A stretch of DNA of 64,000 bases from an uncultured virus (IMG/VR IMGVR_UViG_3300027907_000553) (IMGVR_UViG_3300027907_000553), one strand, 5' to 3'. Counted from the first letter of the stretch, positions 1,140-37,694 are shown. The notes: a model not told the origin generated them from the letters alone. Numbers and translations are program-made.

Positions 1140-1582
1140 GCATGACCATTACGATTGAGACGATTCACATTGACCAGGTGGTCATGACGGCCCCGGCCGC
1201 GCCCAGTCTCCGCTGGCATGTCGGGCCGGTGCAGACCACCACAGGAGGCAGCATGCCGATTGAAGTGACCCTCACGACCGAAGAGAAATGCCGACTCGCC
1301 ATTGCGCCGCTGACGGCCGGGGGCGCTCCCGCGCAGGTGGACGGGGAGGCGCAGTGGAGCGTCGAGGGGACCTGTACGATCGAGCCCATTGATGCCACGA
1401 GTGCGTGGGTGGTCGCAGGCGCCATGGGCGATAGTACGGTGAGCGTCGGCGTGGATGCCGACCTCGGCGCCGGCGTCGTCCCCATTGGCGACACCGCGCT
1501 CATCCATGTGAACAACCCCGAGGCGGCCAGTGTGGGCCTTGCGGCCGATGCGCCAGTGCTCAAAACCGAGGAGCCGGTCTAA
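1136..1582 (+). CDS. Hypothetical virion protein, possibly Ig-like
   Basis: ATGA overlap with the previous gene; beta-rich acidic composition. Confidence 0.5.
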   Translation: MSMTITIETIHIDQVVMTAPAAPSLRWHVGPVQTTTGGSMPIEVTLTTEEKCRLAIAPLTAGGAPAQVDGEAQWSVEGTCTIEPIDATSAWVVAGAMGDSTVSVGVDADLGAGVVPIGDTALIHVNNPEAASVGLAADAPVLKTEEPV

Positions 1583-1613
1583 TGCCCTCCATTGTGGCCC
1601 TCGTGCCTGTTGA

Positions 1614-1678
1614 GCCGCAGCTCACCGGAGCAAGCCGCAGCCCGACTTGGCACAAGGGAATGTAGCCTGGCTTAGAGT
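1614..1678 (-). ncRNA. Pentamer-periodic array C, putative guide RNA
   Basis: + strand units gccgc agctc accgg agcaa gccgc agccc gactt ggcac aaggg aatgt agcct ggctt agagt, at and just after the Cas7-like stop codon. Confidence 0.55.
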
Positions 1679-2238
1679 TTATGCATCGTGAACCGCCCAT
1701 ATTCGGGCCGTTCTTCCAAGATGCCAATACTCGTCCCGGCAATGACAACCAACTCATCCACTTCGCCGGGATTCAACAGCTCGTCGTTAAAGGCGAGTTG
1801 GATTTGCGTACTCCAGGGAAAGAAGATCGGACGAGTACGCAGTACGCGTTGGCCGCGCATACTCTTCGTCGTGCGATAGATAAAGTCGGCATCTTGGTAC
1901 AGCGTCTGCGGATCAGAGGGACCATCGTAGAGAAGTGTGGCGTGTTCTTCAGCCACAAGGCCCGGTTTCACCTTGGGGCCTTTTTTGAGAGTCATCGCTG
2001 CACGCAGGAGTGTAGCTTTGATCGCTTCGCGCGGAATGCACGGTTGGCCATTGTGCAGATAAAGGCTGCCCAGCCATTCCAGGTGTCCGATTTCTTCGTG
2101 ATCGGCTTCCGTCTTCTTGCGTTTGTCCGTGATCTTTTTGATAGCTTTGGTCCATTGATTGAGCGGATCGGACAATTGCCCATTGTGCATCAAGAGTGGG
2201 GCCACGCCTTCGAGATGGTATTTCGCAGTCTGTTTCAC
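1672..2238 (-). CDS. Solo Cas7/RAMP-like RNA-binding protein (188 aa)
   Basis: N-terminal YHLEGVAPLLMHN, central IPREAIKATL, RTRPIF..W, C-terminal G-rich loop AGTSIGILEERPEYGRF; GTG start at 2238 with SD AGGAG. Confidence 0.7.
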   Translation of the reverse strand: MKQTAKYHLEGVAPLLMHNGQLSDPLNQWTKAIKKITDKRKKTEADHEEIGHLEWLGSLYLHNGQPCIPREAIKATLLRAAMTLKKGPKVKPGLVAEEHATLLYDGPSDPQTLYQDADFIYRTTKSMRGQRVLRTRPIFFPWSTQIQLAFNDELLNPGEVDELVVIAGTSIGILEERPEYGRFTMHKL

Positions 2239-2548
2239 AAGCAATCTCCTGATAGGAGGAGCCAAACATATGCACAACATGAGGCGGTGCCACCTCTTGC
2301 ACAGGTGGTAACTCCCTCGTTGTGTAGCGGAGACGACGTTGGTGATCCGTCACAAGGTCATGACAGGGGACACAGAGCGTTGTTAGGTCGTTTAGCTCCT
2401 CCTTTCCGAAGCGTTCATAGGTGCGGTGATGGGCTTGTAATGTCTCATCGCTATTACAGAGACGGCAGCGGTAATTATCACGGGCAAGGCACTGCGCACG
2501 AATAGTCCGCCAATAGGGGCTGGCATAGTGGGATTCATCATAGAGCAT
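1949..2548 (-). CDS. HNH endonuclease; the ORF tail overlaps the Cas7-like gene
   Basis: RDNYRCRLC..LQAHHRTY..DLTTLCVPCH. Confidence 0.8.
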   Translation of the reverse strand: MLYDESHYASPYWRTIRAQCLARDNYRCRLCNSDETLQAHHRTYERFGKEELNDLTTLCVPCHDLVTDHQRRLRYTTRELPPVQEVAPPHVVHMFGSSYQEIACETDCEIPSRRRGPTLDAQWAIVRSAQSMDQSYQKDHGQTQEDGSRSRRNRTPGMAGQPLSAQWPTVHSARSDQSYTPACSDDSQKRPQGETGPCG

Positions 2549-2550
2549 AA

Positions 2551-2780
2551 AATGTACCTAAACAAAGCAGAGCACGACTTAGTGAAGCCTAGCGTAGCGG
2601 GACCGAACGCATAAGGGCATAGCATAACCAAGCTCAGCATAACACAACGGAGCTGAACCAAGCTTTACACAACAGAGGCAACCGGAGCACAACGCAGCCA
2701 AGCTGAACGCATCACAGAGTAGCGCATCGAAGCCTAGCAGATCGCAGCGCAACGGAGCCTAACCTAACAGGGCAAAGCCT
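2551..2780 (-). ncRNA. Pentamer-periodic array B (46 units), putative guide RNA(s)
   Basis: Continuous 5-nt phase; + strand mostly A(G/A)C-NN, i.e. NN-GYT on the transcribed strand; a few degenerate units. Confidence 0.8.
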
Positions 2781-2809
2781 AAAATCTATAAGCTGGCGGC
2801 GACACAAGG

Positions 2810-2919
2810 AGCATAGCCTGGCCTAGCGAAACAAAACGAAACCTAACAGAGCAAAGCTTGTCAGAGCTTAACGTAGCAAAACATACCAGAGCGTACCCTG
2901 GCTTAGATAACCCAAGCGG
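2810..2919 (-). ncRNA. Pentamer-periodic array A (22 units), putative guide RNA
   Basis: agcat agcct ggcct agcga aacaa aacga aacct aacag agcaa agctt gtcag agctt aacgt agcaa aacat accag agcgt accct ggctt agata accca agcgg. Confidence 0.85.
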
Positions 2920-2928
2920 GGGTTGAGC

Positions 2929-3066
2929 CTACGCATCTTTATGCTGTTCTAAATAGGCATCTATGACCCTCCGCAACATCTCAGAAAAGGAAAGGCCGTG
3001 TCGTTTGGCCAGAGTCGTCAGTGCCTGAAATTGTGGAAGACTTAGCATGACGGTTATACGCTTCAT
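2929..3066 (-). CDS. Ribbon-helix-helix (CopG/Arc-like) regulator, 45 aa, absent from the ORF track
   Basis: Hand translation: MKRITVMLSLPQFQALTTLAKRHGLSFSEMLRRVIDAYLEQHKDA. Confidence 0.8.
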   Translation of the reverse strand: MKRITVMLSLPQFQALTTLAKRHGLSFSEMLRRVIDAYLEQHKDA

Positions 3067-3074
3067 AGGCATTT

Positions 3075-3103
3075 ATTATACTGACATCATATGTATGATG
3101 CAA
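3075..3103 (-). promoter_or_regulatory. sigma70 promoter with an overlapping palindromic operator
   Basis: TTGCAT-17 nt-TATAAT on the minus strand; inverted repeat CATCATA-tg-TATGATG at 3085-3100. Confidence 0.8.
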
Positions 3104-3119
3104 GCATAGAAAGTATTGT

Positions 3120-3590
3120 ATGCCTTCGATCATTCCGTTGGTAGATGTCACGCTCGATAAGCCCCGGCATCTACTCTTTACGAGGGCGGCGGTCAAGAAC
3201 ATTGAGTTGGCCCTCACACGGATCTGGGGCCGCGACTACACGTTTTTTGAGGCCGTGCGGCGGCTCAGTGAAATGTTGTTGGATAATGATCTAAGTAAAC
3301 TAAGTTATATTAATATTGCCGTCCTGCTCCACCAAGGCTGCCTGCATGAGGACCCCGCGTTGACGCTCACGCAAGTGGAAGAGTCCTTGCCCTATGCGGA
3401 CCCCACGGGACTCATCCCCTATGTCGGGCTCATCCTCCAAGCCTGGAGCCATGCGAGCCCGCAAGTGGTCGTGGAGGCCGTCACGGCTGAGGCGACAGAC
3501 AGCGACCCTTTGGCCGAATCGACTGGGGCAAGCTCTGGGCCTTTGAACGGACCTGCCTTGGTGTCAGCGACGGCGAGTTCTGGCGCATGA
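3120..3590 (+). CDS. Tail assembly chaperone (lambda gpG-like)
   Basis: Between tail tube and tape measure genes; slippery site near the 3' end. Confidence 0.75.
   Translation: MPSIIPLVDVTLDKPRHLLFTRAAVKNIELALTRIWGRDYTFFEAVRRLSEMLLDNDLSKLSYINIAVLLHQGCLHEDPALTLTQVEESLPYADPTGLIPYVGLILQAWSHASPQVVVEAVTAEATDSDPLAESTGASSGPLNGPALVSATASSGA
3506..3512 (+). other. -1 programmed ribosomal frameshift site C CCT TTG
   Basis: XXXYYYZ heptamer in the correct frame; the -1 frame is open (GRIDWGKLWAFERTCLGVSDGEFWRMT) into ORF 3587..3865. Confidence 0.8.
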
Positions 3591-3865
3591 CGTTTCTCGA
3601 AGGGCACCTGCTGGCCGAGGCGTACTGGCGGCAACAGCAGCGGCAGGTGCGACCGATGGCGATGCTCCTGCAAGCGTATTGGAACGTGCACCGGGATACG
3701 GATCAGCGCCGCGAGCCGTTTACGCTCGAGGACATGCTGGCGGTCTTAGGGTATCCCGAACCACCCGCGCCGCCTCCCCCGCCTCCTCGGTTGGAGGAGA
3801 TCGAGGAGCGGATCGGGATACTGCATAGCTTGTATACCGCGAATGGGGAGAGAAAGGCTGATTAG
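3512..3865 (+). CDS. gpT-like frameshift extension of the tail chaperone
   Basis: LGVSDGEFWRMT motif typical of G-T extensions. Confidence 0.7.
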   Translation, partial: GRIDWGKLWAFERTCLGVSDGEFWRMTFLEGHLLAEAYWRQQQRQVRPMAMLLQAYWNVHRDTDQRREPFTLEDMLAVLGYPEPPAPPPPPPRLEEIEERIGILHSLYTANGERKAD

Positions 3866-4803
3866 CCAGGAATCAGCAACAACGGTTGCACAGGTTTTAG
3901 TACGGTTCTGTTGCCCTTGGTCGAATTACAGGATTGGCAGGCCGGTACTATGTTGCTGGCGGTATGGTTGCCGCCTTTTGAAATTGGTGTGAGATGGTCC
4001 ATAGTCAAGCGTTTCATCTTGCGTCCGCAATACACACAGCGATGGCCATAATGCTGTTTCATAGCTTCCCATTGCGCACGGGTAAAGTCATTAATTGCGG
4101 TAGCAGCTTTGCGTACTCGATATCTTTCTTGATTTATCTGACGAACTTCAGGATGCGTTTGATTCCAGGCACGGTCATAGCCAGGATGGTTTTGTCGAAA
4201 ACGACGCTGGGTTTCCTTCGTCGTATCGGGATTCTCTGCGCGGTATTGACGTGCTCGTGCATTGATAGTGTCACGATGTTTCGCGTGATGGGCTCTCGCC
4301 TCTTGGCGCGCTTTTTCTGGGTCTTGCGCATAGCGAGCAGCGCTATAGGCACGTCCTTGGGCACGCAACTCTTCTCGATGCGTTTCTCGATACTTCGCTT
4401 TGATTGCCCGTATGTCGTCTGGATGTGTTTCCGCCCAGGCACGATTTGCCGCATCGCGTGCTTCTTTATGCTTTTGATACGACTGCCGATGTTGTTCCTG
4501 TATTTTTTCACGGTTGGCTTGATAAGCAGCATTGCGTTTCAAGCGGATTTCTTCACGATTGGCAGCCCACCACTCACGGTGCTTGGCGCTCCTTTCTTCC
4601 TTATGGGCATCTCGGTATTCCTTGGCTTGTGCAAGAAGGGCTTCTCGGTTGGCCGCATAGTAGCGTGCATCGTTTGCGCGGATCGTTTCCTTATGCGCGT
4701 CACGATAGGCTTTGCTCTGCGCCGCATGGTCACGTGCCCATTGGCGTTGATACTGTCGATGAGCTTCCAGTTGTTCAGGGGTCTTCGGACGTTTCGATGG
4801 CAT
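3862..4803 (-). CDS. HNH endonuclease with a long repetitive helical N-terminus
   Basis: CVYCG..LTMDHLTPISKGGNHTASNIVPACQSCNSTK; GGAGGT SD before ATG 4803. Confidence 0.9.
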   Translation of the reverse strand: MPSKRPKTPEQLEAHRQYQRQWARDHAAQSKAYRDAHKETIRANDARYYAANREALLAQAKEYRDAHKEERSAKHREWWAANREEIRLKRNAAYQANREKIQEQHRQSYQKHKEARDAANRAWAETHPDDIRAIKAKYRETHREELRAQGRAYSAARYAQDPEKARQEARAHHAKHRDTINARARQYRAENPDTTKETQRRFRQNHPGYDRAWNQTHPEVRQINQERYRVRKAATAINDFTRAQWEAMKQHYGHRCVYCGRKMKRLTMDHLTPISKGGNHTASNIVPACQSCNSTKGNRTVLKPVQPLLLIPG

Positions 4804-4932
4804 GAGACCAACCTCCGGTTGTTGGTTCCGGTGCGATGGATACGGCAACTCGCCGGAAACGAGCTTCTCGGGTTGCAATCCCTAGCCGTACCCCCTGAGT
4901 ATAGCAGAAAAGTGGGAAGGATAGCGATTTAA

Positions 4933-7900
4933 ATGGCAGAGCTATTAGTCGGTGATGTAGTAGCCCGATTAAGACTAGATGCCAGCGGCTTTGACCAGGC
5001 GCTGACGCAGGCTCAGCAGCGTCTCACGCAACTCGCGCAGACCATGGGCCAGGTGCGTCAGCAACAGGCGAGCAGCCAGCAAGCGACGCAGCAACACGTC
5101 CAGGCGCTCCAGCAACTCACGCAAGCCGTCCAGCAACAGGCCCAAGCGGTCCAACAACAGAGCCAGGCGTCATCGCAGGCGGGCCAAGCGACACGCCAGC
5201 AGGCGCAAGCCCTCCAGCAACTCACGCAAGCCGTCCAGCAACAGGCCCAGGCCGTTCGCCAACAAGCCCAAGCTTTCCAGCAGCAAGCGCAAGCCTTTAC
5301 GCAGGCCCAACAGGCGACCCAGCAACTGACGCAGCGCCAGGCCCAACTTGCCAGTCAGGTGCAGCAGACCACTACGGCCGCGCAGGCTTCTGGGAGTGCC
5401 TTGCAGACGGCCCTCAGTGTGGCCGGCGGCATCGGCATTGCCACGAGTTTGGGCGCGATCGTCAGCCAACTCAAAGAATTTGCCGTCAGTGCGATCGATG
5501 TCGCCACTCGCATGCAATCCCTGCGTGCCTCGCTTGCCGCCTTGGGTGGAGGCATTGGTGCGGGGCAACAACAATTTGCCCAACTCTTTCAAACGGCACA
5601 GGCCCTCGGCGTCGCCTTTGAACCACTCGCCCGCGGCTGGCGGCAACTGACGGCCGCCGCCACCCAGGCCAATTTGCCCCTGGAAGATCAACGGCGGTTA
5701 CTGACTGCCGTCTCGAACGAAGCGCGGCGCGTCGGCGCGAGCAATGACGAACTGGGCCGGATCATTACGGCGCTCGCTCAGACGGCCAGTAAGGGCGTCG
5801 TGTCGATGGAAGAGCTCCGCCAGCAACTCGGCGAAGCGCTGCCTACGGCTCTGGCAGCCCTGGCCCGAGGCATGGGCTATACGACGGAACAGGTGACCAA
5901 GCTGGTGGAAACGGGCACCCTGCGCTTTGTGCCCTTTGCCCTGGCCTTTACGCGCGGCTTAGAAGACATGCAGGCGGCGAGTGGCAAGATGGCCGATGGG
6001 GCGCAGCAAGCGTTTAATCGGCTCGGGAACGCACTCATTGCCTTTAAAGATGCTCTGGGGGCCAATGTCCTGCCCGAACTTGAACGCCTCGCCAAGATTG
6101 CTACCGGCATTCTCGATACGGCGACGGCGCTCCTTGCGCTGGCGGGCGGGCGCCGTGACACCCGCCTCGCTCCCAATATGGCACAAGAAATTGCCGGCAC
6201 GCCGGATCAAGAGCGTGAGGTGCAACGCCTGCGCGGCGTGATTGCGCGGTTAGAGCAGCAAGCGGCCACGGCGGTCCCCGGACCACTGCGTGAGCAGCGC
6301 GAGGGGATGGTTCAGCGGGCCAAGGAAGAGCTCGACACCCTCCTCGAAGTGATCCAAGGGACAAAGAACGAGACTGCTGAACAACAAAAACTCACCGAAG
6401 AGGCGAACCGGACTAAATCTGCCCGCGAGCAGGAGGCGGCGTTCCTTCAGACGATTACGCGGCAACTGGAAGAGGTTCGGAAGAAAGAGGCCGACCTTGC
6501 CGAATCTTCCCGAAAAGCCCCCAATGTCTTTGGGAGTCCGACTGGCACGCCGGAACAACAGGCCGAGTTTGCCAAGCGCCGTCAACAGTTGCTCGAACAG
6601 GAAACTGAGAAACTCACAGCGACGCTCAACCTCCGGCCCGCCAATGTCACACTGACCCCAGCTATTCAGGAACAACTAAAAAATCTGGGGCTCCTCGATC
6701 AGGCCTACGCCAAGGCCGCGCAGACGGTGGATCGCCTCAAGGAGGCGGAGCAAGCGCGTGCCCGTGCGGCGCGTGAACTGGAAGCGCAGCGGGAGCGCGT
6801 GCCCGCTCAGGTCAGTGCGCTGCAAGCCTTTGAAGAACGCCTCGGGGCCTTTGTGCGCCGGCCCACGGAGAACCTGGCGGAAGAGGCCGCCAGTCGGGTA
6901 CGTGTGGCGGGCGCCGCCATGCAAAAGGAACTCGATACCCAGATTCGCACCTTTGAAACTTCGAAGCCCCTGCAGGCGGCAGACCCTGCCGCCTTAGCGC
7001 GGTTGCGCGGTCAGCGCGACGCCCTTACCCAGGCGACCGATGTCCAAGCGCAGGAAGCCTATACCACCGCCCTGGCCAAGCAGATGAGTACGCTTAACGA
7101 TCTCGCCCGCTCGTATGGCTTTGTGACCAAGGAAGCCAGTGATCTCGCCCGTGCCGAAGAAGAAGCCGCTCGGTTTGCCGGGACGCCCCTCCAGGCACAG
7201 GCGGAGGAGCGGCTCCAGGTAGTTCGCGATGTGGCGACGATCGAAGCCCAGATCGTGGATTTAAAGCGGCAGGCCGCTGCCAGTGAACGGGCAGGACTGG
7301 AGGCCATGAAAGAGGCCAGAGCCAGTACGGCCTTTGACGTGACGCTGACCGAGCAACTGGAGCGGTTGCGTGCACCCCGTGAGGAACGCCCGGAACTGCG
7401 CTTGCGCGAACAAGCGCGGCGGCAAGGCGTAGAGGTGACCCCCGAGCGCGAAGCGCGCCTCCAAGCCATTACCGCGCAAGTGCGCTTTAACGAGATCATG
7501 CAAGCCACCGAGCGCATTGGCGATGCTGCCGCACAGACGCTCACCCAGGGCCTCCAAAGCATTATTGATGGCACACAACGCGTGAGCGATGCCTTCCGGC
7601 TCATGGCCAAGAGTATTCTCGATTCAGTCGCCCAGATTGCCCTCAACGAGGGCTTTCGCACGCTGATTCGGCTCGGCATTACGGCGATTGGCGCGGTCTT
7701 TGCCCCAGGGGTGACCGGCGGGGTCACGGGGGGGGCGACGACCGGGTCCATTGCGGCCGGTGTCGGGGGCAATTGGAGCGGCAGCGGATTGCAACACGGG
7801 GGCATCATTAATAAGCCCACGATGATCCTTGCGGGTGAAAATCCAGCGATGAATCCTGAATACGTCTTGAATCGGCCCCAGATGCAAGCGCTGATGAGTG

Positions 7901-8100
7901 GCACGATGCAGGCCGGTCCAACGGCCGGCGGCCAAGCTGCAGGCGTCACGGTCATTAACGTGCCCAACAGAGCTGTGGCCGAACAAGAGGCGGCGCGGGA
8001 ACGTGCCCTCGGAAGATCTGTCATTATCAACGAAGTTCTGAATGAAATAAGTCAAGGATCAGGTTCGCGCATTGCGCGGACGTTACAGGCCCTGCGCTAA
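4933..8100 (+). CDS. Tape measure protein
   Basis: 1055 aa, A/Q-rich helical; ASKGVVSMEELRQQLGEALP tape-measure motif; C-terminal HGGII..AGE..PEYV. Confidence 0.95.
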   Translation: MAELLVGDVVARLRLDASGFDQALTQAQQRLTQLAQTMGQVRQQQASSQQATQQHVQALQQLTQAVQQQAQAVQQQSQASSQAGQATRQQAQALQQLTQAVQQQAQAVRQQAQAFQQQAQAFTQAQQATQQLTQRQAQLASQVQQTTTAAQASGSALQTALSVAGGIGIATSLGAIVSQLKEFAVSAIDVATRMQSLRASLAALGGGIGAGQQQFAQLFQTAQALGVAFEPLARGWRQLTAAATQANLPLEDQRRLLTAVSNEARRVGASNDELGRIITALAQTASKGVVSMEELRQQLGEALPTALAALARGMGYTTEQVTKLVETGTLRFVPFALAFTRGLEDMQAASGKMADGAQQAFNRLGNALIAFKDALGANVLPELERLAKIATGILDTATALLALAGGRRDTRLAPNMAQEIAGTPDQEREVQRLRGVIARLEQQAATAVPGPLREQREGMVQRAKEELDTLLEVIQGTKNETAEQQKLTEEANRTKSAREQEAAFLQTITRQLEEVRKKEADLAESSRKAPNVFGSPTGTPEQQAEFAKRRQQLLEQETEKLTATLNLRPANVTLTPAIQEQLKNLGLLDQAYAKAAQTVDRLKEAEQARARAARELEAQRERVPAQVSALQAFEERLGAFVRRPTENLAEEAASRVRVAGAAMQKELDTQIRTFETSKPLQAADPAALARLRGQRDALTQATDVQAQEAYTTALAKQMSTLNDLARSYGFVTKEASDLARAEEEAARFAGTPLQAQAEERLQVVRDVATIEAQIVDLKRQAAASERAGLEAMKEARASTAFDVTLTEQLERLRAPREERPELRLREQARRQGVEVTPEREARLQAITAQVRFNEIMQATERIGDAAAQTLTQGLQSIIDGTQRVSDAFRLMAKSILDSVAQIALNEGFRTLIRLGITAIGAVFAPGVTGGVTGGATTGSIAAGVGGNWSGSGLQHGGIINKPTMILAGENPAMNPEYVLNRPQMQALMSGTMQAGPTAGGQAAGVTVINVPNRAVAEQEAARERALGRSVIINEVLNEISQGSGSRIARTLQALR
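5107..5249 (+). repeat. 38-bp direct repeat in the tape measure gene
   Basis: ctccagcaactcacgcaagccgtccagcaacaggccca at 5107-5144 and 5212-5249. Confidence 0.9.
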
Positions 8101-19241: not shown

Positions 19242-19738
19242 TGAAACGTCTTGTGCCTCTCCTCCTCCTGAGCAGTATCCTCTGGGCGGCCCCGCTCTGG
19301 GCCGCTTCCCCCTTCGTTTGGCTCCGTGGTGCCATCGACACCTGGATTACGACCAGCACCGGGTTGGCGAGCGGCTCCAGCGTGCTCTCCGCCGCCATTA
19401 CGCTCAGCAGTGCCAACTATACGAGGGCAGACTGCGAACTGAATACCGGCGCCTGGAGCGGTGCGGTGGCGGCCAATACCGCCGTCGTCGTGTGGCTGAT
19501 TCGGCAGGCGGACGGAACCAATTATGAAGACGGGGCTACTGGGACGGATCCCGCCCGTCTCCCTGATTTTATCTTTCCCCTGCGCGCGGTCAGCACGGCC
19601 CAGCGGATTGTGATTCCGAGCATTGAACTCCCACGGGGGTTGTTCAAAGCCCTGCTCAAAAATGATGGCACGGGCGTGACCCTCCAGGGCGCCCCATGGA
19701 CGCTCAAATGCACTCCGTACGTGTTACAAGTGCCCTAG
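19238..19738 (+). CDS. Signal-peptide-bearing hypothetical protein
   Basis: MMKRLVPLLLLSSILWAAPLWA. Confidence 0.65.
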   Translation: MMKRLVPLLLLSSILWAAPLWAASPFVWLRGAIDTWITTSTGLASGSSVLSAAITLSSANYTRADCELNTGAWSGAVAANTAVVVWLIRQADGTNYEDGATGTDPARLPDFIFPLRAVSTAQRIVIPSIELPRGLFKALLKNDGTGVTLQGAPWTLKCTPYVLQVP

Positions 19739-20583
19739 CTCTTCTCCTGCTGCTCACGCTGCTGAGTGCGCCAGCGCTCGCGCAACCCCGGCTGGATCGG
19801 AATGCACCTACCGCCCAGGGGCTTTTGGGGTGGTGGCGGGCGGTAGCAGGTCTGACCGGGGGGCGTACCTGGTATGATCTCACCGGACGCTTTGCGGCGA
19901 CGCTTATCAACATAGACGCGGCGGGGAGTAGTGGCTGGGGCGCGACCACACGCCCCGGCGGACAGGGCGAAGTGCGCTTTGATGGCAGCAATGATTACGG
20001 CACACTGCCCGTGACCTCCCAGTTGTGGCCGCCCGCGGTGTCCATCCTCCTGTGGGTCAAACGTACGGCCACCGGGAACGACTATCAAGGGCTGTTTACT
20101 GGCGGGGATAATGGGGGATTTCGGGACATTACGCTGCGCTCGACTGGCGGCATGAACGTCTCGTTTGTCACGGCCCCTGGGACCTACCTACAACAAGACA
20201 ATGTGAATCCTGGGAGTGTCGCCATTGGCGTATGGACACACCTTGCGTATACCTACAGTAGTACCACGGGCTTACAAGGCTATGTCAATTGTGTGCCCAA
20301 TGGCGCCCCGAATAGCCCCGATGGAACGATGTATCCCATTACCACGCTGGGCACCATGTTTGGGGCCTCGCAAATATCGGGGATCACCTACTTCGCCGGT
20401 GCCATGGATGACATTAAACTCTACAAGCGGGCGTTACTTGCCAGGGAAGTCTGTCAGGTGATGCGGGACTCGCAACTTGGGGAGCCGCGCCTGCTTCCGC
20501 CAGCGCTCCTGGTCGGCGTGCTGCCGCCGCTGGTCGGCCCCGGCCCCACGAGCCGCTTTTTGCCCTTTTTCCAGACCCCCTGA
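19708..20583 (+). CDS. LamG/concanavalin A-like lectin with signal peptide
   Basis: FDGSNDY..WTHLAYTY..YFAGAMDDIKLYKRAL. Confidence 0.85.
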   Translation: MHSVRVTSALALLLLLTLLSAPALAQPRLDRNAPTAQGLLGWWRAVAGLTGGRTWYDLTGRFAATLINIDAAGSSGWGATTRPGGQGEVRFDGSNDYGTLPVTSQLWPPAVSILLWVKRTATGNDYQGLFTGGDNGGFRDITLRSTGGMNVSFVTAPGTYLQQDNVNPGSVAIGVWTHLAYTYSSTTGLQGYVNCVPNGAPNSPDGTMYPITTLGTMFGASQISGITYFAGAMDDIKLYKRALLAREVCQVMRDSQLGEPRLLPPALLVGVLPPLVGPGPTSRFLPFFQTP

Positions 20584-20593
20584 AAGGATTGTT

Positions 20594-23053
20594 ATGGTGT
20601 GGTTGGTCTTCGTCGTCAGTCTCATGTGGGTCATCCCTGCCTGGAGTGCCACCTACTACGTGTCTACCACAGGAGCCTCAGATGGGAATCCCTGTGTGAA
20701 CAACAATATTGGCGCGCCTAAAAGGAATATCGCTGGACCAAATGGTGGTATCTCCTGTTTGTTTCCCGGCGACACGCTGTTCATTCGTCAAGGCACGTAT
20801 AATGAGACCATCACGCCACCAGGGGGGTCCTGGATGCGCAATGGGACGGGGGATAACAGTCGGATCACCATTGCCGGCTACCCTGGAGAAACCGTCATTC
20901 TCCAACCGTTTAGTGGTGGCGCCGTGCTCTCCCTCCAGCAGACAGGCAATTTTAGTTGGATGACTTTCCAAGACCTTATCTTTGATGGAACCAATACTTC
21001 TGGTGTCGCGTCCATTGCGGGAGACACCCACCATTTGCGGTTTCTGCGGTGTGAACTCCGCAACGCGTCGCAGGGGGGCAACTCGGCGCATGGCTTTGGG
21101 GGGTCAGGCGGCGCCAATCATGAATTTCTCTACCTCTATATCCACCACAATACCGGCTATGGGGCCTATTTCTCCGGGGCTAATTCGGTCTGGGACCATG
21201 TGACTATTACTGATAATGGGGGGTATGGGCTGCACTTTTACGATAAATCCTCCCACATTGATAACACGGTCGTCAAAAATAGCATTATTGCGCGCAACGG
21301 GTTTAACAACTCCTCGGGCGGGGGCGGGATTGTGCTCTTCCACGGCGACAATCAGCAAGTCTATAACAATCTCATTTACGGCAATTTCGATGGCGTCGGC
21401 ATTCGCAGTAGCTGCGGCGACTGCAAAGTCTATAACAATACCATTCATGGTAATCAATTTCGGGCGATCCAGATTCTGGGTGAAAACTTTGATTATGAAT
21501 ATCCGCCGGGCAGTGGGCAATTCCGGCCGATTCGTGAGCCCGCGAACGTCGTCTTGCAAAATAATATTCTCTCCAATAATGGCAATACCATCGAGCATGA
21601 AAATGGCACCATCGCAGCCATGGACCACAATCTCTGCATAGGCACGTCGCAAAACCTCTGTGATATGGTCGGTAATCCTGCCTATGAAGATGCCGGGAGT
21701 GACAATTTTAAATTGACCGGGAACAGTCAGGCGCGCAATAGGGTGCCCACGAGTGCAGGCGCCTGTAAAATAGCGATTGACTTTGAAGGCACGGCCCGGC
21801 CCCAAACTCCGGTGGGCGGCTCGGCTACCCCGTGTGATATTGGGGCCTATGAGTACAATGAGGGCAACCCCACGACCCCACCCAACGGCAATCCCATCTA
21901 TGTGCGGGGGAGTGTCGGCAACGATGCCAATGATTGCTTTGCCGCGGAAAGTCCTGTTACCGCCAAGCAGCACTTGCTGGGGCCGCAGGGGGCACTCAGT
22001 TGCATGCAGACGCCGGGCAAGGTCTTGTACATCGAAGGCAATGGCCAGGTATATAGCGAGGAAATTGATATCGCCACCACCGGCCTCGTGGGGGGGGATG
22101 GCCCCTCGTTTACATCCGCGACGCGCCTGGAAGGCTATGGCTCTCCGCTACCCGTTCTCAAGGCCCCCGCCGGTGGCAATCTCAACCTGTATGTGCGTGG
22201 CAGCAATGCCAAGTATCTGATTTTTAAGAAGCTCATCATTGACGGTAATAATGATACCTACAACACTGTAGCGATTGCGACCCCCGCCCATCATATTCGC
22301 TTTGAAGAGGTGGAAGTGAAAAATACCCTGGGTCGAGGGTTTGAGGGCGTGCATATCTCGAATGTCACCAATATCGAGCTGGTAGATACCTTTATCCACG
22401 ATGTCCAGACCGAGGCGATTACCCTGGAAGGCAGCATTGATGGCATGCTGTGTCAGCGGTGTCATCTGTTTAGTGCCCAGGGCAAGGGCTTTTTGGTAGT
22501 GAATAATGGCACCAAAGCCAATGTCACCCTGCGGGAAACGGAAATCCGCAATAATAGCGACGAGGGAATTGATGTGGCCACCGGCACCGGCGTGCTCTTG
22601 CAAAACCTGCTGCTCCACTCCAACGGGGGCCGGGGCGTGTGGATTCAGAGTGGAGCCACGGGGACCAGCGTCTTGAACACGACGGTGTATGGCAATACGG
22701 GTGTGGGCGTGCAGTGTGATCCGCCCGCCGCCAACACTCAGATTGTGAACAATATCGTCTATGGCAATACGGGTGGGAACATCGTCAACAATTGCAGTGC
22801 CGCCGCCTCCTCCAACGTCACCATCAACCCGAACTTTCGCGGCCCACCGGGGGATTTGAAGCTCAACGAACCCTCGCCCGCGATTGACCAGGGGCAGACG
22901 CTCCCCAGTATCTTGACCGATTATGAAGGTCAGCCGCGTCAGCAAGGCCAGCAGGACGTGGGCGCCTATGAAACGATTGCGACGACAGGCACGCCTGGCG
23001 AGACGGTCACCGAGCAGCCGTGCAATCTGTTGGCCGCGAGCATGTACTTTTAG
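20594..23053 (+). CDS. Tandem right-handed beta-helix (pectate-lyase-like) protein with signal peptide
   Basis: WSATYYVST, PGDTLFIRQGTY, VYNNLIYGN/VYNNTIHGN repeats, DIGAYE and DVGAYE ends. Confidence 0.85.
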   Translation: MVWLVFVVSLMWVIPAWSATYYVSTTGASDGNPCVNNNIGAPKRNIAGPNGGISCLFPGDTLFIRQGTYNETITPPGGSWMRNGTGDNSRITIAGYPGETVILQPFSGGAVLSLQQTGNFSWMTFQDLIFDGTNTSGVASIAGDTHHLRFLRCELRNASQGGNSAHGFGGSGGANHEFLYLYIHHNTGYGAYFSGANSVWDHVTITDNGGYGLHFYDKSSHIDNTVVKNSIIARNGFNNSSGGGGIVLFHGDNQQVYNNLIYGNFDGVGIRSSCGDCKVYNNTIHGNQFRAIQILGENFDYEYPPGSGQFRPIREPANVVLQNNILSNNGNTIEHENGTIAAMDHNLCIGTSQNLCDMVGNPAYEDAGSDNFKLTGNSQARNRVPTSAGACKIAIDFEGTARPQTPVGGSATPCDIGAYEYNEGNPTTPPNGNPIYVRGSVGNDANDCFAAESPVTAKQHLLGPQGALSCMQTPGKVLYIEGNGQVYSEEIDIATTGLVGGDGPSFTSATRLEGYGSPLPVLKAPAGGNLNLYVRGSNAKYLIFKKLIIDGNNDTYNTVAIATPAHHIRFEEVEVKNTLGRGFEGVHISNVTNIELVDTFIHDVQTEAITLEGSIDGMLCQRCHLFSAQGKGFLVVNNGTKANVTLRETEIRNNSDEGIDVATGTGVLLQNLLLHSNGGRGVWIQSGATGTSVLNTTVYGNTGVGVQCDPPAANTQIVNNIVYGNTGGNIVNNCSAAASSNVTINPNFRGPPGDLKLNEPSPAIDQGQTLPSILTDYEGQPRQQGQQDVGAYETIATTGTPGETVTEQPCNLLAASMYF

Positions 23054-23063
23054 GGAGGGCGCG

Positions 23064-24941
23064 ATGCGTTGCTGGATCGTCCTCGTCATGCTCTGCTTCT
23101 GCCTGCCGCGCTTGGGGGCGGCGCATTGTGTCCCCCAGCCGCCCGCGACGCTCTTTCCCGTGGTCGTGAATCAGTTTGGGTATACACCCACGGCCCAGAA
23201 AGTGGCGGTGGTCCGCGATCCTCAGACGGGCTTTGATGCCGCCACCGACTATACCCCGCCGGCAAGTCTCCAGGTGCGCCGCCGTAGCGATACGGGCCTG
23301 GTCATGACCGTTACCCCCACGGCCTGGAACGGGGGGGCCACGCATGGACAGTCGGGTGACAAGGTGTGGTGGGTCGACATGTCCGCGCTCGGGCCTGGGG
23401 TGTATTACCTCTTCGATCCCTCCCGCAATGCCCGCAGCGATTTTTTTGCCGTGAGCGATACGGTGTATACCACGGTGCTCCGGCAAGTCCTCCGCATGTT
23501 CTATTATCAAAGGAGTGGTTTTGCCAAGGCGGCGCCCTACACGGATGCGAAGTGGGCCGACGCCGCCGCGTTTCTGGGCACCGGGCAAGATACGCAGGCG
23601 CGCAGTATCGCGGACAAGACCAATCCGGGGACGGCCAAAGACGTGCGGGGCGGCTGGTTTGATGCCGGGGACTACAATCGTTACACCGTCTGGGCCACGT
23701 GGACACTCGCCGATCTGCTGCTGGCTTATCTCCAGTATCCTGCCGTGTGGACGGATGATTTGAACATTCCAGAGTCAGGCAACGGCATTCCGGATCTCCT
23801 GGACGAAGTGAAGTGGGAGTTGGAGTGGCTGTTGAAGATGCAAGCGGCCACAGGAAACAACAGTGTCCTCAGTAAGGTCTCCACGGATACCTCGGTGGGG
23901 ACCAGCCCGCCCTCGGCCGATACGAACGCGCATTACTGGGGCGCCGCGTCAACGGCTTCGACCGCGTGCACGGCGGGCGTCTTTGCTCTGGGTGCGATCG
24001 CTTTTGCCCAGGCCGGGCAAACGACCTATGCCACCACTCTCACCACGGCGGCCACGAACGCCTGGACCTGGGCCCAGGGCAATCCCAGTGTCACCTACGA
24101 TAACGCGGGCTTTACCACCCCCTCGCCGGAGCCCGATACGTATGGCCGTAGCATGTGTATGTTACAAGCAGGTATATACCTGTATGCCAGGACAGGCACA
24201 GGGGCATACAAGACCTATGTGGAAGCCAATTATACGAATGCCCATGCCCTCAGCTTTCCCTACTGGTATGGCTCGAATCCCATGGATGTGGCGACGCAGC
24301 ACGCCCTGCTCTATTATGCGGCCCAACCTGGCGTGACAGCCGGGGTGAAGACGGCCATTCAAAACAGCAAGACGGCGAGCATGACAGCAGGAAGCAATGG
24401 TGATGAACTCTTAAACGCTGCGACCAATGCCACCGATGCGTACCGCAGTTACGTCAAAGACGCGGATTATGCGTGGGGGAGTAATCGTACTAAAGCGCAC
24501 ATCGGGGGGCTCTTCCTCGACCAATTGCGCTACAGCCTCGATGCCCCCAATGCCACCGCGTATAAAAATGGCGCTGCGGGCTACCTGCATTACCTCCTCG
24601 GGGTCAATCCCTTGGCCATCGTGTACCTGACCAACATGAATGCCTACGGGGCGACGCGCTCGGTCGATGAGATCTGGCACTATTGGTTTAACGATGGGAC
24701 TGATTGGGATAATGCGATCACCTCGCCCAAAGGGCCAGCGCCAGGCTATTTGGCTGGGGGACCGAATCCTAATCCCAGTGGCACAGGTTTACCGACGCCG
24801 CCTGCCGGGCAACCAATCCTTAAGAGTTTCGCCAGTTTTAATACGACAGAGCCTGTCCGGTCATGGGAGTTTACGGAACCTGGTATTTACTACCAAAGTG
24901 CACTAATTTATTTACTAGCACACTTCGTGGCGAATCCATGA
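23064..24941 (+). CDS. Glycoside hydrolase family 9 with N-terminal Ig-like domain and signal peptide
   Basis: VNQFGY..QKVAV; DVRGGWFDAGDY; SGNGIPDLLDEVKWELEWL; YLLGVNP; TEPGIYYQSAL. Confidence 0.93.
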   Translation: MRCWIVLVMLCFCLPRLGAAHCVPQPPATLFPVVVNQFGYTPTAQKVAVVRDPQTGFDAATDYTPPASLQVRRRSDTGLVMTVTPTAWNGGATHGQSGDKVWWVDMSALGPGVYYLFDPSRNARSDFFAVSDTVYTTVLRQVLRMFYYQRSGFAKAAPYTDAKWADAAAFLGTGQDTQARSIADKTNPGTAKDVRGGWFDAGDYNRYTVWATWTLADLLLAYLQYPAVWTDDLNIPESGNGIPDLLDEVKWELEWLLKMQAATGNNSVLSKVSTDTSVGTSPPSADTNAHYWGAASTASTACTAGVFALGAIAFAQAGQTTYATTLTTAATNAWTWAQGNPSVTYDNAGFTTPSPEPDTYGRSMCMLQAGIYLYARTGTGAYKTYVEANYTNAHALSFPYWYGSNPMDVATQHALLYYAAQPGVTAGVKTAIQNSKTASMTAGSNGDELLNAATNATDAYRSYVKDADYAWGSNRTKAHIGGLFLDQLRYSLDAPNATAYKNGAAGYLHYLLGVNPLAIVYLTNMNAYGATRSVDEIWHYWFNDGTDWDNAITSPKGPAPGYLAGGPNPNPSGTGLPTPPAGQPILKSFASFNTTEPVRSWEFTEPGIYYQSALIYLLAHFVANP

Positions 24942-28649: not shown

Positions 28650-29471
28650 GTGGTAAGCATACCAGATCTATCCTCTACGCATGCAACTCCTGTGACAACG
28701 CCCCGCGCTGTTGAACCCACCGTGCTCCAGCCCGAGGCGCGTTCGGCGCATCCCGACCTGATGCTGCTGCTGGCTATGGAGCATCTGCAACAGGAGCAGC
28801 AACGCCTCGAAACCGAGGTGCAACAGCTTGTCCCGCTTCTTGAGCAAATCATTACCCTGCTCACGCCACGCCAAGAGCCTCCGCCGCCGCCCATCGCCTC
28901 CTATGCACGTTTGTATGCTGACGAGGACCTGCCTGACGTGGTCCCCCAGGTTGCCGCCGCCCCGCCGCCGCCGCCACGAAGGATCTGGCGCCGCGTCGTC
29001 GCCTCGCGCAGTAGCCGGGTCTTCGCTGCCCTCGCGGTGCTCGCCGTGGGCGCGCTTCCCTGGGTGCGGGTGAATGTCACGTCCAGTGCGCCTCGTGGCC
29101 TCTGGCGCCTGCTGGCTGTACCGGCAGTGGTGGAGAAAGGTATGTGGGTGACTATGCCCGCGCCCGCGAGTGTGAAAACCTGGGCGCCGCACTGGTCACC
29201 CCTGCTCAAGCCGGTAGCCGCGGTGGCTGGGGAACAGGTCTGTGTCGCCAAGGACACGCTCTTGATTCGGGGAGAGTCCTATGGCCGTGTCTTCACGCAG
29301 GATGCCGAGGGACAGCCGCTCCCACGGCTGCGGGAGGGCTGTATGGTGGTGCAGCCTGGCACAGTGTTCCTGGCCAGTGCTGGACATCAGAGTCTCGATA
29401 GTCGGTATTTTGGGAGTGTGCCGGTGGCGGCGCTGTCGTCGCGGGCGCTCCCGCTTCTCACGTGGAGGTAA
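28650..29471 (+). CDS. traF: TraF-like S26 pilin-processing peptidase with N-terminal extension
   Basis: NVTSSAPRGLW, LLKPVAAVAGEQVC, SLDSRYFG. Confidence 0.85.
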   Translation: MVSIPDLSSTHATPVTTPRAVEPTVLQPEARSAHPDLMLLLAMEHLQQEQQRLETEVQQLVPLLEQIITLLTPRQEPPPPPIASYARLYADEDLPDVVPQVAAAPPPPPRRIWRRVVASRSSRVFAALAVLAVGALPWVRVNVTSSAPRGLWRLLAVPAVVEKGMWVTMPAPASVKTWAPHWSPLLKPVAAVAGEQVCVAKDTLLIRGESYGRVFTQDAEGQPLPRLREGCMVVQPGTVFLASAGHQSLDSRYFGSVPVAALSSRALPLLTWR

Positions 29472-29682
29472 GGCACGGGTGAGACAGTTCTTGTACGACT
29501 GCCTCGATAAGCCGCTGGGGTGGTCCTTCTATGTGATAGAGCTCCTCGGTTTTCTCCTCGTCACGCTCTATTTCTATGGCGTGAATCCCTCGCACATGGT
29601 GGCGGAGATGGTGCGGGGGCTCTTGGTGTTTGGAGTGGTGTGTACTGGTCGTCGCCTGCTCGTCGGGCACTGGAGGTAACTC

Positions 29683-30033
29683 ATGGATACGTTGCAGCAG
29701 CTTCGGGATCGTCTTGCCAACTTGTATCGCACCGCCCTCGGCCGGGATCCTGTGCCGGGGCAACGCCAGGAATCGTCCTTGGTGAACGGGGTCCTGCGGC
29801 AAACGCTGGATCCTGACCAGGGACTGGCACAGCAGCGCCTGACGGCGCCTGAGAGGACAGGCCAGCAGTCCTCGCTCTCACGGCAGGCGTTTGACCAGTT
29901 GGGGCAGCGGAGTACGCCCGCTCCGTCGGCCCAGAAGTTTCTGGACCAGATTGATGCGCTCCAACAACGCCTGGCTGCCGCCCGGCAGGCGGATCAGGCG
30001 CAGCAGCGCCAGGGGTGGGAGCGTGGACGTTAG
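29683..30033 (+). CDS. Hypothetical Gln-rich protein
   Basis: GGAGGT SD; C-terminal QQRQGWER. Confidence 0.55.
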   Translation: MDTLQQLRDRLANLYRTALGRDPVPGQRQESSLVNGVLRQTLDPDQGLAQQRLTAPERTGQQSSLSRQAFDQLGQRSTPAPSAQKFLDQIDALQQRLAAARQADQAQQRQGWERGR

Positions 30034-30055
30034 GGACGATCGGTAGGGATCTCCA

Positions 30056-31570
30056 ATGACTGCTGTTGAAATGATCTTCCAACTGGGTCTGTGGACCAAG
30101 ACGCATCCCCAGCTGCTTTTTGGGGGGATGGGGAGCATGCTGGCCCTGATGGCCGGCGCCGGGATGTTGGGGCGTGCCAAACGGCACAAACAGATTACCC
30201 AGGGCAGCGCCAGGTGGGCCACGTTTCGAGAGATACGGGACGCAGGGTTGCTCGCGCCCCAGGGCGTGGTGGTTGGGCGCTTAGGGCGACGGCTCCTCTG
30301 TGACGATAGTGAGACGCACGACTTACTGCTGGCGCCGACGCGCAGCTGGAAAGGCATTGGCCCCATTCTCTGCACGCTCCTCGGCGGATGGCTCTCCTCA
30401 GTCCTGGTGTACGATCCTGCCGATGGGGAGAATGCCAACGCCTCGGCACGGTGGCGAGCCTCGTTAGGCCATCGGGTTGAACAATTTACGCCGAAGCGCT
30501 CGCCCCAGGCCTGCATCAATGTGTGTGACCTCATTCGCGTGGGAACGCCGCACGAGTTTGATGATGCCTGGGCGATTGCGGAGAGCCTCCAGCCGCAGGA
30601 CCAGCAGGTGCGCCACAGTGACACCGGCGTCCATTTTCGGGACCTGGTGTTGATGCTCCTCACCGCCGCGCAACTGCACATGGCCTACGCGGAACCGCCG
30701 GGCTCACTCGGCAAACTGCTGTGGCTCCTCATGCAGAAGTACCGCACGCTCCCGGCCTTTGTGCAGGAGATGACGCGCCACAACCACACGGGTATCGGCG
30801 TCCACCAGGCCATTCATATGCTGGCGACGGGGATTCAGAACATTACCAACGAGCGCGAGCTCTCGGGCGTGTGGACGACCGCGATCCGTCCCTTACTCCC
30901 CTATATGGATTACACGATTCAGCGCAGCACGGATCGCTCGACCATCGCCCTGCGCGATTTGCAGCATGGTCCCGCGCCGCTCTCGCTCTACCTGGTCGCC
31001 CCCAGCACCACGGATTTGACGCGCCTGGCCCCGGTCTACCGCGTCATTTCCGATATGGCCATGCGGGAGTTGGAGCAGATGCCGCCGCGGAGCGCTCGGC
31101 ATCGCCTGCTGGTCATTGCGGATGAGGCCCCGGCCTATGGCTATAGCCGCTTTCTCGATAAAGGGAGTGCTGAGGTGGCCAAGTTTCGCATCAAGCTCCT
31201 TCTTGTGGCGCAAGATATCCCGCAGTTGGATGCCACGTTTGGGCGGGACAATAGCGTCTGGGGGAACACCTCCACCAAGATTTTCTTTGCTCCGGATAGT
31301 GATGTGACGGCCAAGCGCCTCAGTGAGCATTTTCTCGGCAAAGAGACCGTGGAGCAACCCGTCCTTTCGAAGCAGCCGGGTCTCGTCCAGCGGCCCTCGG
31401 TGTCGTATCAGCAAGTCGGGCGCGCGCTCATGACGCCCGATGAATTGCGGGCCATGCACCCGCGCGCTGCGATTGTCTACCGGACGGGGCTGCGGCCCAT
31501 TCTGTGTGGCAAGGTGAATTGTTTGACCGATCCAGACTATGCCGGCAGGCATACGGCGCCAGTCCCGTAG
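30056..31570 (+). CDS. virD4: Type IV coupling protein VirD4/TraG with variant Walker A
   Basis: GSARWAT..AGLL, APTRSWKGIG, LLVIADEAP, LVAQDIPQL, RALMTPDEL. Confidence 0.9.
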   Translation: MTAVEMIFQLGLWTKTHPQLLFGGMGSMLALMAGAGMLGRAKRHKQITQGSARWATFREIRDAGLLAPQGVVVGRLGRRLLCDDSETHDLLLAPTRSWKGIGPILCTLLGGWLSSVLVYDPADGENANASARWRASLGHRVEQFTPKRSPQACINVCDLIRVGTPHEFDDAWAIAESLQPQDQQVRHSDTGVHFRDLVLMLLTAAQLHMAYAEPPGSLGKLLWLLMQKYRTLPAFVQEMTRHNHTGIGVHQAIHMLATGIQNITNERELSGVWTTAIRPLLPYMDYTIQRSTDRSTIALRDLQHGPAPLSLYLVAPSTTDLTRLAPVYRVISDMAMRELEQMPPRSARHRLLVIADEAPAYGYSRFLDKGSAEVAKFRIKLLLVAQDIPQLDATFGRDNSVWGNTSTKIFFAPDSDVTAKRLSEHFLGKETVEQPVLSKQPGLVQRPSVSYQQVGRALMTPDELRAMHPRAAIVYRTGLRPILCGKVNCLTDPDYAGRHTAPVP

Positions 31571-31600
31571 GCTGGAGTGGAAGCAGGAAGGAGACGCACC

Positions 31601-31927
31601 GTGGTGAGCAAGACTGAGCGGAACACGACGGTTGGGGTGGTGGTGATGATAGGCGGACTCCTGGTGGTCCGCCAGGCCGCAGCCTTTTCCCTGGGGATTG
31701 CCCTCGATGGGTTTCTCGGGGATCTCGAAACGGCGCTGGTGTCCCTGGGCCTCATCGCCTTTTTGGCGGGCGGGATTGGCACGATTGTGGCGATGACCGA
31801 GAATGCCTACGCGCAATTCTTGAGTGGGTATCTCTCGCTCTTCGTCAAGGGCGGTATTTTAGGGGGGCTCTCCACGATTGGCGGGGCGTTGGGCCTCGTG
31901 AGTGGCGCCATCCTGCTAGGAGTGTAG
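31601..31927 (+). CDS. Pilin, VirB2/TrbC-like
   Basis: Small hydrophobic protein directly before VirB3 and VirB4. Confidence 0.6.
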   Translation: MVSKTERNTTVGVVVMIGGLLVVRQAAAFSLGIALDGFLGDLETALVSLGLIAFLAGGIGTIVAMTENAYAQFLSGYLSLFVKGGILGGLSTIGGALGLVSGAILLGV

Positions 31928-31928
31928 C

Positions 31929-32225: not shown

Positions 32226-32227
32226 GC

Positions 32228-34855: not shown

Positions 34856-35077
34856 GCGTGAGCGGGCGGCGATCCGGCAGGCGAGTGCCGAGGCCAGCTT
34901 GCGCGATTTTGCCCCACGCCATGCGCGCCGCCGCAGTGAGTGGGAGCGCACCATGAGTATCTGGGAAGCTCGGGATGCCTACCGCGTCCAGAATGGTGTG
35001 CTCGGCGTCGGACTCGCGGCGCTGCTCGGTTTCGTGCTGATATGCGCGGGGATCTTTCTCCGCTAGAAAGGTGCCAT

Positions 35078-35979: not shown

Positions 35980-35982
35980 CGC

Positions 35983-36915: not shown

Positions 36916-36925
36916 GGAGACGAGA

Positions 36926-37681: not shown

Positions 37682-37694
37682 GGAGAGTGCTGGT

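Follow-up and report, generated by a model that had tools for sequence, protein, structure and literature searches.

The window, by which the whole stretch of 64,000 nucleotides analysed here from the uncultured virus IMGVR_UViG_3300027907_000553 (IMG/VR) is meant, is a siphophage-like genome with genes encoding tail tube, tail assembly chaperone-like, tape measure and portal proteins. A full T4SS/relaxase module (28650-41788) lies between the tail-fibre genes and the genes of recombination, replication and packaging and includes, in addition to the genes listed below, those encoding an S26 TraF-like peptidase and a T5orf172 protein. The tail-fibre region (22923-24941 and 19696-23053) encodes a GH9 glycoside hydrolase (Pfam 1e-55), beta-helix proteins and a laminin-G-like protein, which are presumably host-surface polysaccharide depolymerases. 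The ORF encoding VirD4 matches the Pfam family T4SS-DNA_transf (4e-54), and a 93% identical VirD4 is carried by metagenome contigs of 56 kb and 70 kb.

Between the tail tube and tape measure genes there is a cassette of which all parts lie on the minus strand, in the order ribbon-helix-helix (RHH) gene, arrays, HNH gene, vipr and a short degenerate array. The features of the cassette and of its surroundings are as follows, guide assignments being predictions:

57-1139: tail tube genes
1583..1615, plus strand: orphaned 5' end of the chaperone gene, 11 codons (MPSIVALVPVE), at the left edge of the insertion
1616..1671, minus strand: array A, a short degenerate pentamer array of about 12 units, downstream of vipr
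1672..2280, minus strand: vipr, encoding the RAMP/Cas7-like Vipr protein P0002, assigned by homology, AF2 model and Foldseek
2281..2548, minus strand: HNH endonuclease domain gene, candidate vap accessory gene (PHROG HNH families, E to 2.5e-13)
2556..2665, minus strand: putative vrRNA guide B1a, units 0-21, period-5 A-R-C-N-N on the plus strand
2666..2780, minus strand: putative vrRNA guide B1b, units 22-44, VirD4/TraG-like, containing the stretch 2676-2765 singled out in the initial annotation
2781..2809, minus strand: non-periodic spacer between guides, with a U-run at its end on the minus strand
2810..2919, minus strand: putative vrRNA guide B2, 22 units, with codons 52-73 in the tail assembly chaperone gene as predicted target
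2929..3066, minus strand: RHH (RelB/CopG-like) gene encoding P0001, 45 aa (NCBIfam RelB-like, 1.6e-4, below cut-off)
3120-3152, plus strand: new, diverged chaperone start (MPSIIPLVDVT) on the right side, restoring the gene
3120..3590, plus strand: tail assembly chaperone-like gene, between tail tube and tape measure genes, with the new 5' end
3273-3338: resident counterpart of the B2 target, inside the chaperone-like gene
4933-8100: tape measure gene
30056-31570, plus strand: VirD4 gene
30194..30253, plus strand: resident virD4 stretch ITQGSARWATFREIRDAGLL, a partial match to B1b (28/40 variable bases for units 22-41)
32228-39766: genes for VirB4, B6, B8, B9 and B10
40691-41788: gene for the MobA relaxase
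59373-60977: portal gene

The HNH gene at 2281-2548 has a weak match to Pfam HNH (1.8e-3). Its ORF (2548-1949) extends about 110 codons beyond the domain and overlaps the start of vipr (2280-1672) in another frame, and the same overlap is present in the related locus L014 (1448-1020 versus 1120-554); the true start of vipr is probably near residue 15. Locus L014 carries a related cassette (RHH gene, array, HNH gene, P0002 homologue, array) elsewhere, upstream of the tail tube gene, with the same RHH gene, an HNH homologue that is 50% identical, and an array 1 in the same position as array A.

Form of the arrays and identity of the system

The plus strand at 2556-2780 (45 units) and 2810-2919 (22 units) is composed of 5-nt units of the form A-R-C-N-N. 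For the five phases within 2556-2775, A was found in 39/44 units, R (A or G) in 38/44 and C in 40/44, followed by two variable positions, and lag-5 autocorrelation above 0.5 was confined to the array within the 64-kb window. In the register 2556+5k, the units of 2676-2765 read AGGCA ACCGG AGCAC AACGC AGCCA AGCTG AACGC ATCAC AGAGT in the first half and AGCGC ATCGA AGCCT AGCAG ATCGC AGCGC AACGG AGCCT AACCT in the second; the dinucleotides listed for this stretch in the initial annotation are exactly the last two bases of each unit. The array was not reported by Tandem Repeats Finder, and searches for Rfam families and for tRNAs with ARAGORN gave no match. A protein-coding or pentapeptide repeat was rejected, with stops in all frames and a periodicity of 5 rather than 15 nt, and a TRAP/Hfq-type protein-binding RNA, an anticodon-loop mimic, a DGR template and a packaging site were dropped once homology to Vipr had been found.

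Regarding this homology, P0002 has no Pfam match, belongs to phrog_4652 (E 4e-41) and aligns over nearly its full length (residues 23-199) with the PDB chain 36pp_D, 'SUSP1 Vipr protein' (phmmer E 6.4e-21). A 127-member profile matches one solved structure, 36pp (E 9.8e-59), and a search of a library of 1.8 billion proteins gave 2237 cluster representatives as homologues of P0002 (E ≤ 1e-3). The AF2 model (pLDDT 96.7) leads in Foldseek to Csm3-type/Cas7 RAMPs (E 2e-5). Of 13 further viral loci with ARCNN arrays that were examined, 11 had a Vipr homologue next to the array, and none was detected in the remaining two, L036 and L091.

The VIPR (Viral Interference Programmable Repeat) system, a phage system of RNA-guided DNA silencing described in 2026, consists of Vipr, a small RAMP homologue of about 20 kDa, and of vrRNAs built from GGY/NN pentamers, which read DNA through their NN pairs by a '1-nt skip rule', the skipped base usually being the codon wobble position (10.64898/2026.04.26.720920). 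According to the same preprint its natural targets are competing phages and satellites, mostly the coding DNA of rival mobile elements, targets are called at ≥80% NN match, seven types exist, HNH domains are found among the accessory proteins, and in some arrays, called 'staggered', one vrRNA follows another without a spacer. Cryo-EM places one Vipr protomer on each repeat, with an R-loop triplex being formed (10.64898/2026.04.26.720927), and competition between phages and satellites through VIPR has been described using an identity of ≥0.8 and shuffled-guide nulls (10.64898/2026.10.15.759431).

The system of the window shares with type II VIPR (Escherichia phage SUSP1 and a P. fulva prophage) the Vipr RAMP protein, at E 6e-21 to that of SUSP1, pentamers of three constant and two variable bases that flank vipr on its strand, a 1-nt skip at the wobble position, and targets in genes of competing phages. 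It differs from type II in guides of 20-23 rather than 9-16 units, and in accessory genes encoding HNH and RHH proteins where type II has the DNA-binding vap1. Types III and V are nuclease-associated and an HNH-domain Vap is named in the legend of fig. S21 (10.64898/2026.04.26.720920), as here an HNH gene adjoins vipr; those types, however, are described as enriched in the defence islands of cells and as aimed at viruses, whereas the present cassette lies in a phage tail-gene module and would be aimed at alleles of the flanking phage genes. The RAMP fold is shared with the Cas7/Csm3 backbone filaments of Class 1 CRISPR systems (Foldseek, Csm3 chains), as are, from the literature, one protomer per guide repeat and thumb-induced base flipping; VIPR nevertheless has a 5-nt guide period with two paired bases per three target bases instead of a 6-nt period with five paired, and unlike Class 1 CRISPR the window system has neither CRISPR repeats nor adaptation genes.

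An unbiased period-5 array caller, run on 80 vipr loci from IMG/VR, detected an array in 73/80, always on the strand of vipr, so that the vrRNAs of the window would be read from the minus strand as 5'-G-Y-U-N-N-3'. From homology and repeat form, the region 2556-2919 is identified as an array of VIPR guide RNAs (vrRNAs), the system being a new representative of a published kind, and the 45-unit array is taken to contain at least two guides. This agrees with the initial annotation in treating the array as a set of guides whose specificity resides solely in the two variable bases of each pentamer. The spacer at 2781-2809 may represent the 3' tail belonging to the vrRNA of 2810-2919. VIPR has a conserved structured 3' tail, but no significant fold was found 3' of the two arrays in the window (z 0.98 and 1.18); array 1 of L014 is followed by a strong hairpin and a U-run (z -3.4) and is the only one with such a 3' structure among the arrays folded. 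Within 1500-3250 no promoter-like sites were found, and none of the four terminator-like sites clearly bounds a vrRNA.

By analogy with the published systems, transcription of the array on the minus strand would yield tandem 5'-G-Y-U-N-N-3' pentamers, each bound by one Vipr protomer with its constant triplet buried. The presented NN pairs would then pair with the first two bases of one target triplet after another, the third base being flipped out, and binding of the target would silence its transcription; the adjacent HNH protein may add cleavage. The initial annotation had presented the wobble-skipping code as new. A skip code does operate in this phage, but with the clear Vipr homologue and an array that is read by the skip rule it is the VIPR code, in print since April 2026 (bioRxiv 10.64898/2026.04.26.720920), and only the GYU triplet and the gene context differ; a previously unknown code peculiar to this cassette is therefore very hard to credit.

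Guide B2 and the skip rule in this phage family

A scan of array dinucleotides against codon-spaced positions of the whole window gave six windows of at least 10/18, five of which stack at 3273-3285 (11-12/18), the sixth being that at 30200 (10/18). The 22 units of B2 can be aligned over their full length with codons 52-73 of the adjacent plus-strand gene at 3120-3590 (MLLDNDLSKLSYINIAVLLHQG), with 14/22 dinucleotides matched, and shuffles of B2 reached the self score in 0/100 and 0/500 cases. Across the 17 IMG/VR loci compared for the chaperone gene, the NN match in frame with the codons was 39/44 (89%) in L010-L015 and 38/44 (86%) in L007-L009, against 35/44 (80%) in the resident allele and 34/44 in L004-L006; the chaperone allele of cassette-free relatives (…SFVNISVLLWQG) fits B2 better than the phage's own. 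As for the resident counterpart at 3273-3338, it is unusually AT-rich at wobble positions (GAT AAT GAT CTA AGT AAA CTA AGT TAT ATT AAT ATT) compared with L007-L015. VIPR pairing is indifferent to wobble changes there, and a similar allele is found in L004-L006, which have no cassette.

Independently of B2, array 1 of L014 specifies the N-terminus of the tail tube protein (ITAATNATPIVVTT…), with 12-13/16 dinucleotides compared with a shuffle maximum of 9/16, and the NN identity of its array 1 to the tail-tube gene is 28/32 in L005 and L006 and 27/32 (84%) in L014 itself. Pairing of the variable bases with codon positions 1 and 2, the wobble base being skipped, had been assumed in the initial annotation, with the VirD4 match as independent support, and it is borne out by B2 (39/44) and L014 (28/32) and by the published 1-nt skip rule. 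The wobble-skipping code thus operates in this phage family, and its support from B2 is much stronger than that from the VirD4 guide.

Several guides have no assigned target. For B1a (units 0-21) the best match in the window is 24/44, a value reached by 401/500 shuffles, over the 1.2 Mb of further DNA compared no match exceeds 26/44 (59%), and a 9-unit pattern had no matches in IMG/VR contigs. No target was found for array A (1616-1671), with a best NN match anywhere searched of 17/24; array 2 of L014 reaches 68% at best, and the arrays of L087, L021 and L091 gave matches at chance level in the DNA searched (66-75% for 16-unit sub-guides, 13/16 for a single 8-unit guide). Arrays of the GYU type (ARCNN on the opposite strand) of 13-69 units occur beside Vipr homologues in many other IMG/VR phages, among them L021 (2798-3245), L087 (2961-4366), L091 (2961-3305, reverse strand) and L050 (2344-3045), those of L021 and L087 adjoining the large terminase gene; the repeat-pattern scan of IMG/VR yielded at least 124 stretches.

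Guide B1b and the coupling-protein motif

Read by the skip rule, units 22-41 (2666-2765) specify T-x-HGTA-x-WATVAEL-x-AAGLL, a VirD4/TraG-like signature. The initial annotation had compared 2676-2765 with codon positions 1 and 2 of the resident virD4 at 30200-30253 (QGSARWATFREIRDAGLL), and its score of 10/18 dinucleotides and 26/36 nt, ungapped, was reproduced. When all 18-unit windows of the 45-unit array were compared with both strands of the window, 30200 alone reached 10/18, as did 3/100 shuffled arrays over all windows (p about 0.03). For the fixed 18-unit window 2676-2765, 26/36 nt was reached by 2/500 shuffles; for units 22-41 the resident score of 28/40 (70%) was reached by 0/500, and for units 22-44 that of 29/46 by 9/500, window length and boundaries having been chosen post hoc for the VirD4 match. 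The match to the resident virD4 is beyond usual chance, but modest.

The N-terminal motif itself, given as HGSARWA..E...AGLL in the initial annotation, is a genuine T4CP signature: in 18 homologues G50, R53, W54 and G64 are invariant and T48, S51, A52 and A55 nearly so. For 80 metagenomic T4CP loci, obtained with an alignment of close VirD4 relatives, the best window of the array fell on the same motif in the same register in 78/80, the exceptions, L166 and L179, both being without the N-terminus. The dinucleotide score was 13/18 in L201, which encodes a 31% identical protein, and 12/18 in L163, L167, L221 and L222, a level on the T4CP loci that 0/60 shuffled arrays reached. The refutation envisaged in the initial annotation did not occur, as better-matching VirD4 homologues than the resident copy (10/18) exist and the score also lies above those of shuffles. 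The resident-type L160-L162 score 10/18 and L163, also a close relative of the resident VirD4, 12/18; with close relatives at 10-12/18, a near rival allele like that of B2 was not found. Over units 22-41 L201 is the best of the 80 loci with 32/40 nt (80%), while over units 22-44 the best of the 80 reaches 33/46 (72%), and these scores are not independent, since once the resident motif is matched the homologues scatter around that score. All local alignments to T4CP loci begin at or near unit 22, the midpoint of the 45-unit array, the neighbouring B2 being 22 units long. The whole 45-unit array as a single VirD4 N-terminus was rejected, as gapped alignment never goes upstream of unit 20-22.

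Of the residues of the resident VirD4, 12/18 are compatible with the guide, as are 13/18 of those of P0004 and P0005, the best residue-level compatibility being 14/20, in 2/137 T4CP proteins. The guide has CA where 18/18 aligned homologues have Arg, so that the invariant Arg is unspecified; His at this 'invariant' position was found in one MAG (L242, HGSAHWAT). Among 185,579 GTDB species genomes, a 16-unit pattern had no matches and a 12-unit skeleton pattern matched in eight places, all of them T4CP motifs, with 13/20 units and 30/40 nt (75%) at best; an 11-unit skeleton had no matches in IMG/VR. No T4CP gene in the loci and genomes searched reached the target-calling criterion applied (at least 80% NN match) over the full guide, units 22-44. 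Relatives of VirD4 in IMG/VR were not found by single-protein patterns, and four distant ones (26-33% identity) were found by alignment; the five related phage records searched are all without VirD4, and the nearest virus record is without the array region.

The reading favoured here, with a probability of roughly 0.65, is that B1b is aimed at a coupling-protein gene, the exact allele of which is absent from the databases searched and is not the resident copy: units 22-41 would be a guide against virD4/traG of a competing conjugative element or phage-plasmid, and the resident virD4 would be a diverged, sub-threshold relative of the target. It is unlikely, though by no means negligible, that the resemblance arose by chance, units 22-44 being a guide to an unsampled gene unconnected with conjugation whose GC/GG/CT-rich units happen to meet a GC-rich conserved motif. 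Such an origin would agree with the shuffles that equal the match (3/100 over all windows, 9/500 for the 23-unit guide), with a window length chosen after the fact, with the lack of a target of ≥80% over the full guide, and with the 72-75% that unrelated 16-unit sub-guides of other phages reach by chance in 1.5 Mb. It fits poorly with 0/500 shuffles at 28/40 for units 22-41, with a match that rises to 80% in some homologues, starts at the midpoint of the array and places the skipped base on the wobble position, and with the 55-59% attained by the sister guide B1a, for which the searches gave no target.

The guide might instead act on the phage's own virD4 (30194-30253), for instance in shutting off the T4SS during lytic growth. 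The resident gene is the best match for the guide in the window, and guides of this family match genes of their own phage at 80% (B2) and 84% (array 1 of L014), so that self-contact is not clearly avoided; at 28/40 (70%), though, it is well under the ≥80% level and hence not a called target, T4CP homologues match better than the resident copy, and in the VIPR preprint perturbed NN pairing abolished silencing and no self match above 80% is reported (10.64898/2026.04.26.720920). Self-regulation is accordingly regarded as quite improbable. Regarding the guide against a rival coupling protein proposed in the initial annotation, scores above shuffles and 80% over 20 units (L201) speak for it, whereas the 72% over the full guide and the mismatched Arg do not; its link between the cassette and the conjugation module holds as homology, but the resident virD4, at 70%, stays below the published target-calling level.

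Insertion of the cassette and variation of the constant triplet

The cassette interrupts the chaperone gene behind its codon 11. The orphaned start, MPSIVALVPVE, matches that of the relatives (MPSIVALVPV...), and a 33-bp diverged duplicate of the chaperone start flanks the 1.5-kb cassette on both sides. By blastn, 739-1615 is collinear with 3158-4034 of L010 and 3152-3846 with 4033-4733 of L010, while L006, L007 and L010 lack 1616-3151 and run on without a break at the junction. At the chaperone site the cassette is missing from L004-L013 and L015, and five of the five IMG/VR contigs that have it are 100% identical to the window across 1500-3200. The B2 site is 120-185 bp inside the interrupted chaperone gene.

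A second free-standing HNH gene (3862-4878, minus strand, 338 aa, Pfam HNH 2e-13) is present between the chaperone and tape measure genes, and its homologue sits between tail tube genes in L006, L007 and L014. The occurrence of HNH genes at different sites in the relatives indicates that HNH cassettes move around the tail module. Cassettes of free-standing HNH homing endonucleases are known from phages, where they spread by intronless homing, as with the seg and mob genes of T4. The present cassette shares with these its presence or absence among close relatives, its position in or next to conserved structural genes, the restoration of the interrupted gene, and a recognised site that, in the cassette-free allele, is about 120-185 bp away from the point of insertion; homing endonucleases use a DNA-binding domain of their own, whereas here the choice of target would be RNA-guided via Vipr.

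With a guide site in the interrupted gene, an adjoining HNH gene and an L014 cassette aiming at its own neighbour, the cassette looks like a homing element; its manner of insertion is that of such elements and suggests RNA-guided homing. From the preference of the guide for cassette-free alleles (86-89%) over self (80%) we infer that the cassette-free allele would be cleaved and the cassette copied into it.

Regarding the constant triplet, it is GYU here ('GYTnn' by the array caller in all five copies of this phage) and not the published GGY, the VIPR preprint allowing for 'a related consensus' and naming the variants NNNGG, YNNNG and NNNNG (10.64898/2026.04.26.720920). In the cryo-EM structure the contacts are H17 and D177 for the reading of G1, R138 and W178 for the holding of G2, and a pyrimidine pocket for Y3 (10.64898/2026.04.26.720927). 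The G-loop of P0002 (residues 186-197; window about 1690-1725, minus strand), which was compared over loci L249-L328, has EERP in place of the DWRP of SUSP1 (D177-W178-R179) and most relatives. GG occupies the first two constant positions in 50/52 DWRP loci (26 GGYnn, 18 GGCnn, 5 GGnnn and 1 GGAnn), and the EERP loci have GYTnn in 5/5, all five being copies of this phage. Ten other Vipr proteins beside ARCNN/GYU arrays are also without the Asp-Trp pair, their G-loops being LESRP, GGFRP (two), CELRP, GELRP, GCGRP, LTFRV, LRFRP, GDNRQ and GAGRP. Since non-DW loops occur with GYU repeats, loss of Trp stacking on G2 appears to go with the change of G2 to Y, a correlation read against the published structure, which fits the contacts seen by cryo-EM.

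Taken together, a conjugation target class, a homing-like HNH cassette and a GYU/G-loop specificity switch may be advances over the VIPR preprints; two of the 2026 preprints have no instance of the string 'conjugati' in their main text. That the elements RHH-vrRNA-HNH-vipr form in one an RNA-guided homing element, with an anti-T4CP guide against rivals and a GYU/non-DW specificity class of its own, is a tentative proposal and on balance a doubtful one.

The noncontiguous code of VIPR was recovered in the initial annotation from the raw sequence alone, and it proves valid in a phage lineage of soil/rhizosphere origin, remote from the systems of E. coli and Pseudomonas to which work has so far been devoted. 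If the homing reading is true, Vipr filaments would find the cassette-free allele in a co-infecting relative, the HNH protein would cut it, and the cassette with its restored gene start would be copied in. If the switch from GGY to GYU with loss of the G-loop Asp-Trp pair is likewise what it seems, it would define a separate Vipr specificity class, and as a natural specificity switch it could guide the engineering of orthogonal VIPR scaffolds. The anti-T4CP guide, if real, would point to a possible new class of target, in that a phage with a T4SS of its own would turn VIPR against the conjugative elements with which it competes; the conflicts known for VIPR, between phage and satellite and between phages, would then be joined by those between phage and plasmid.
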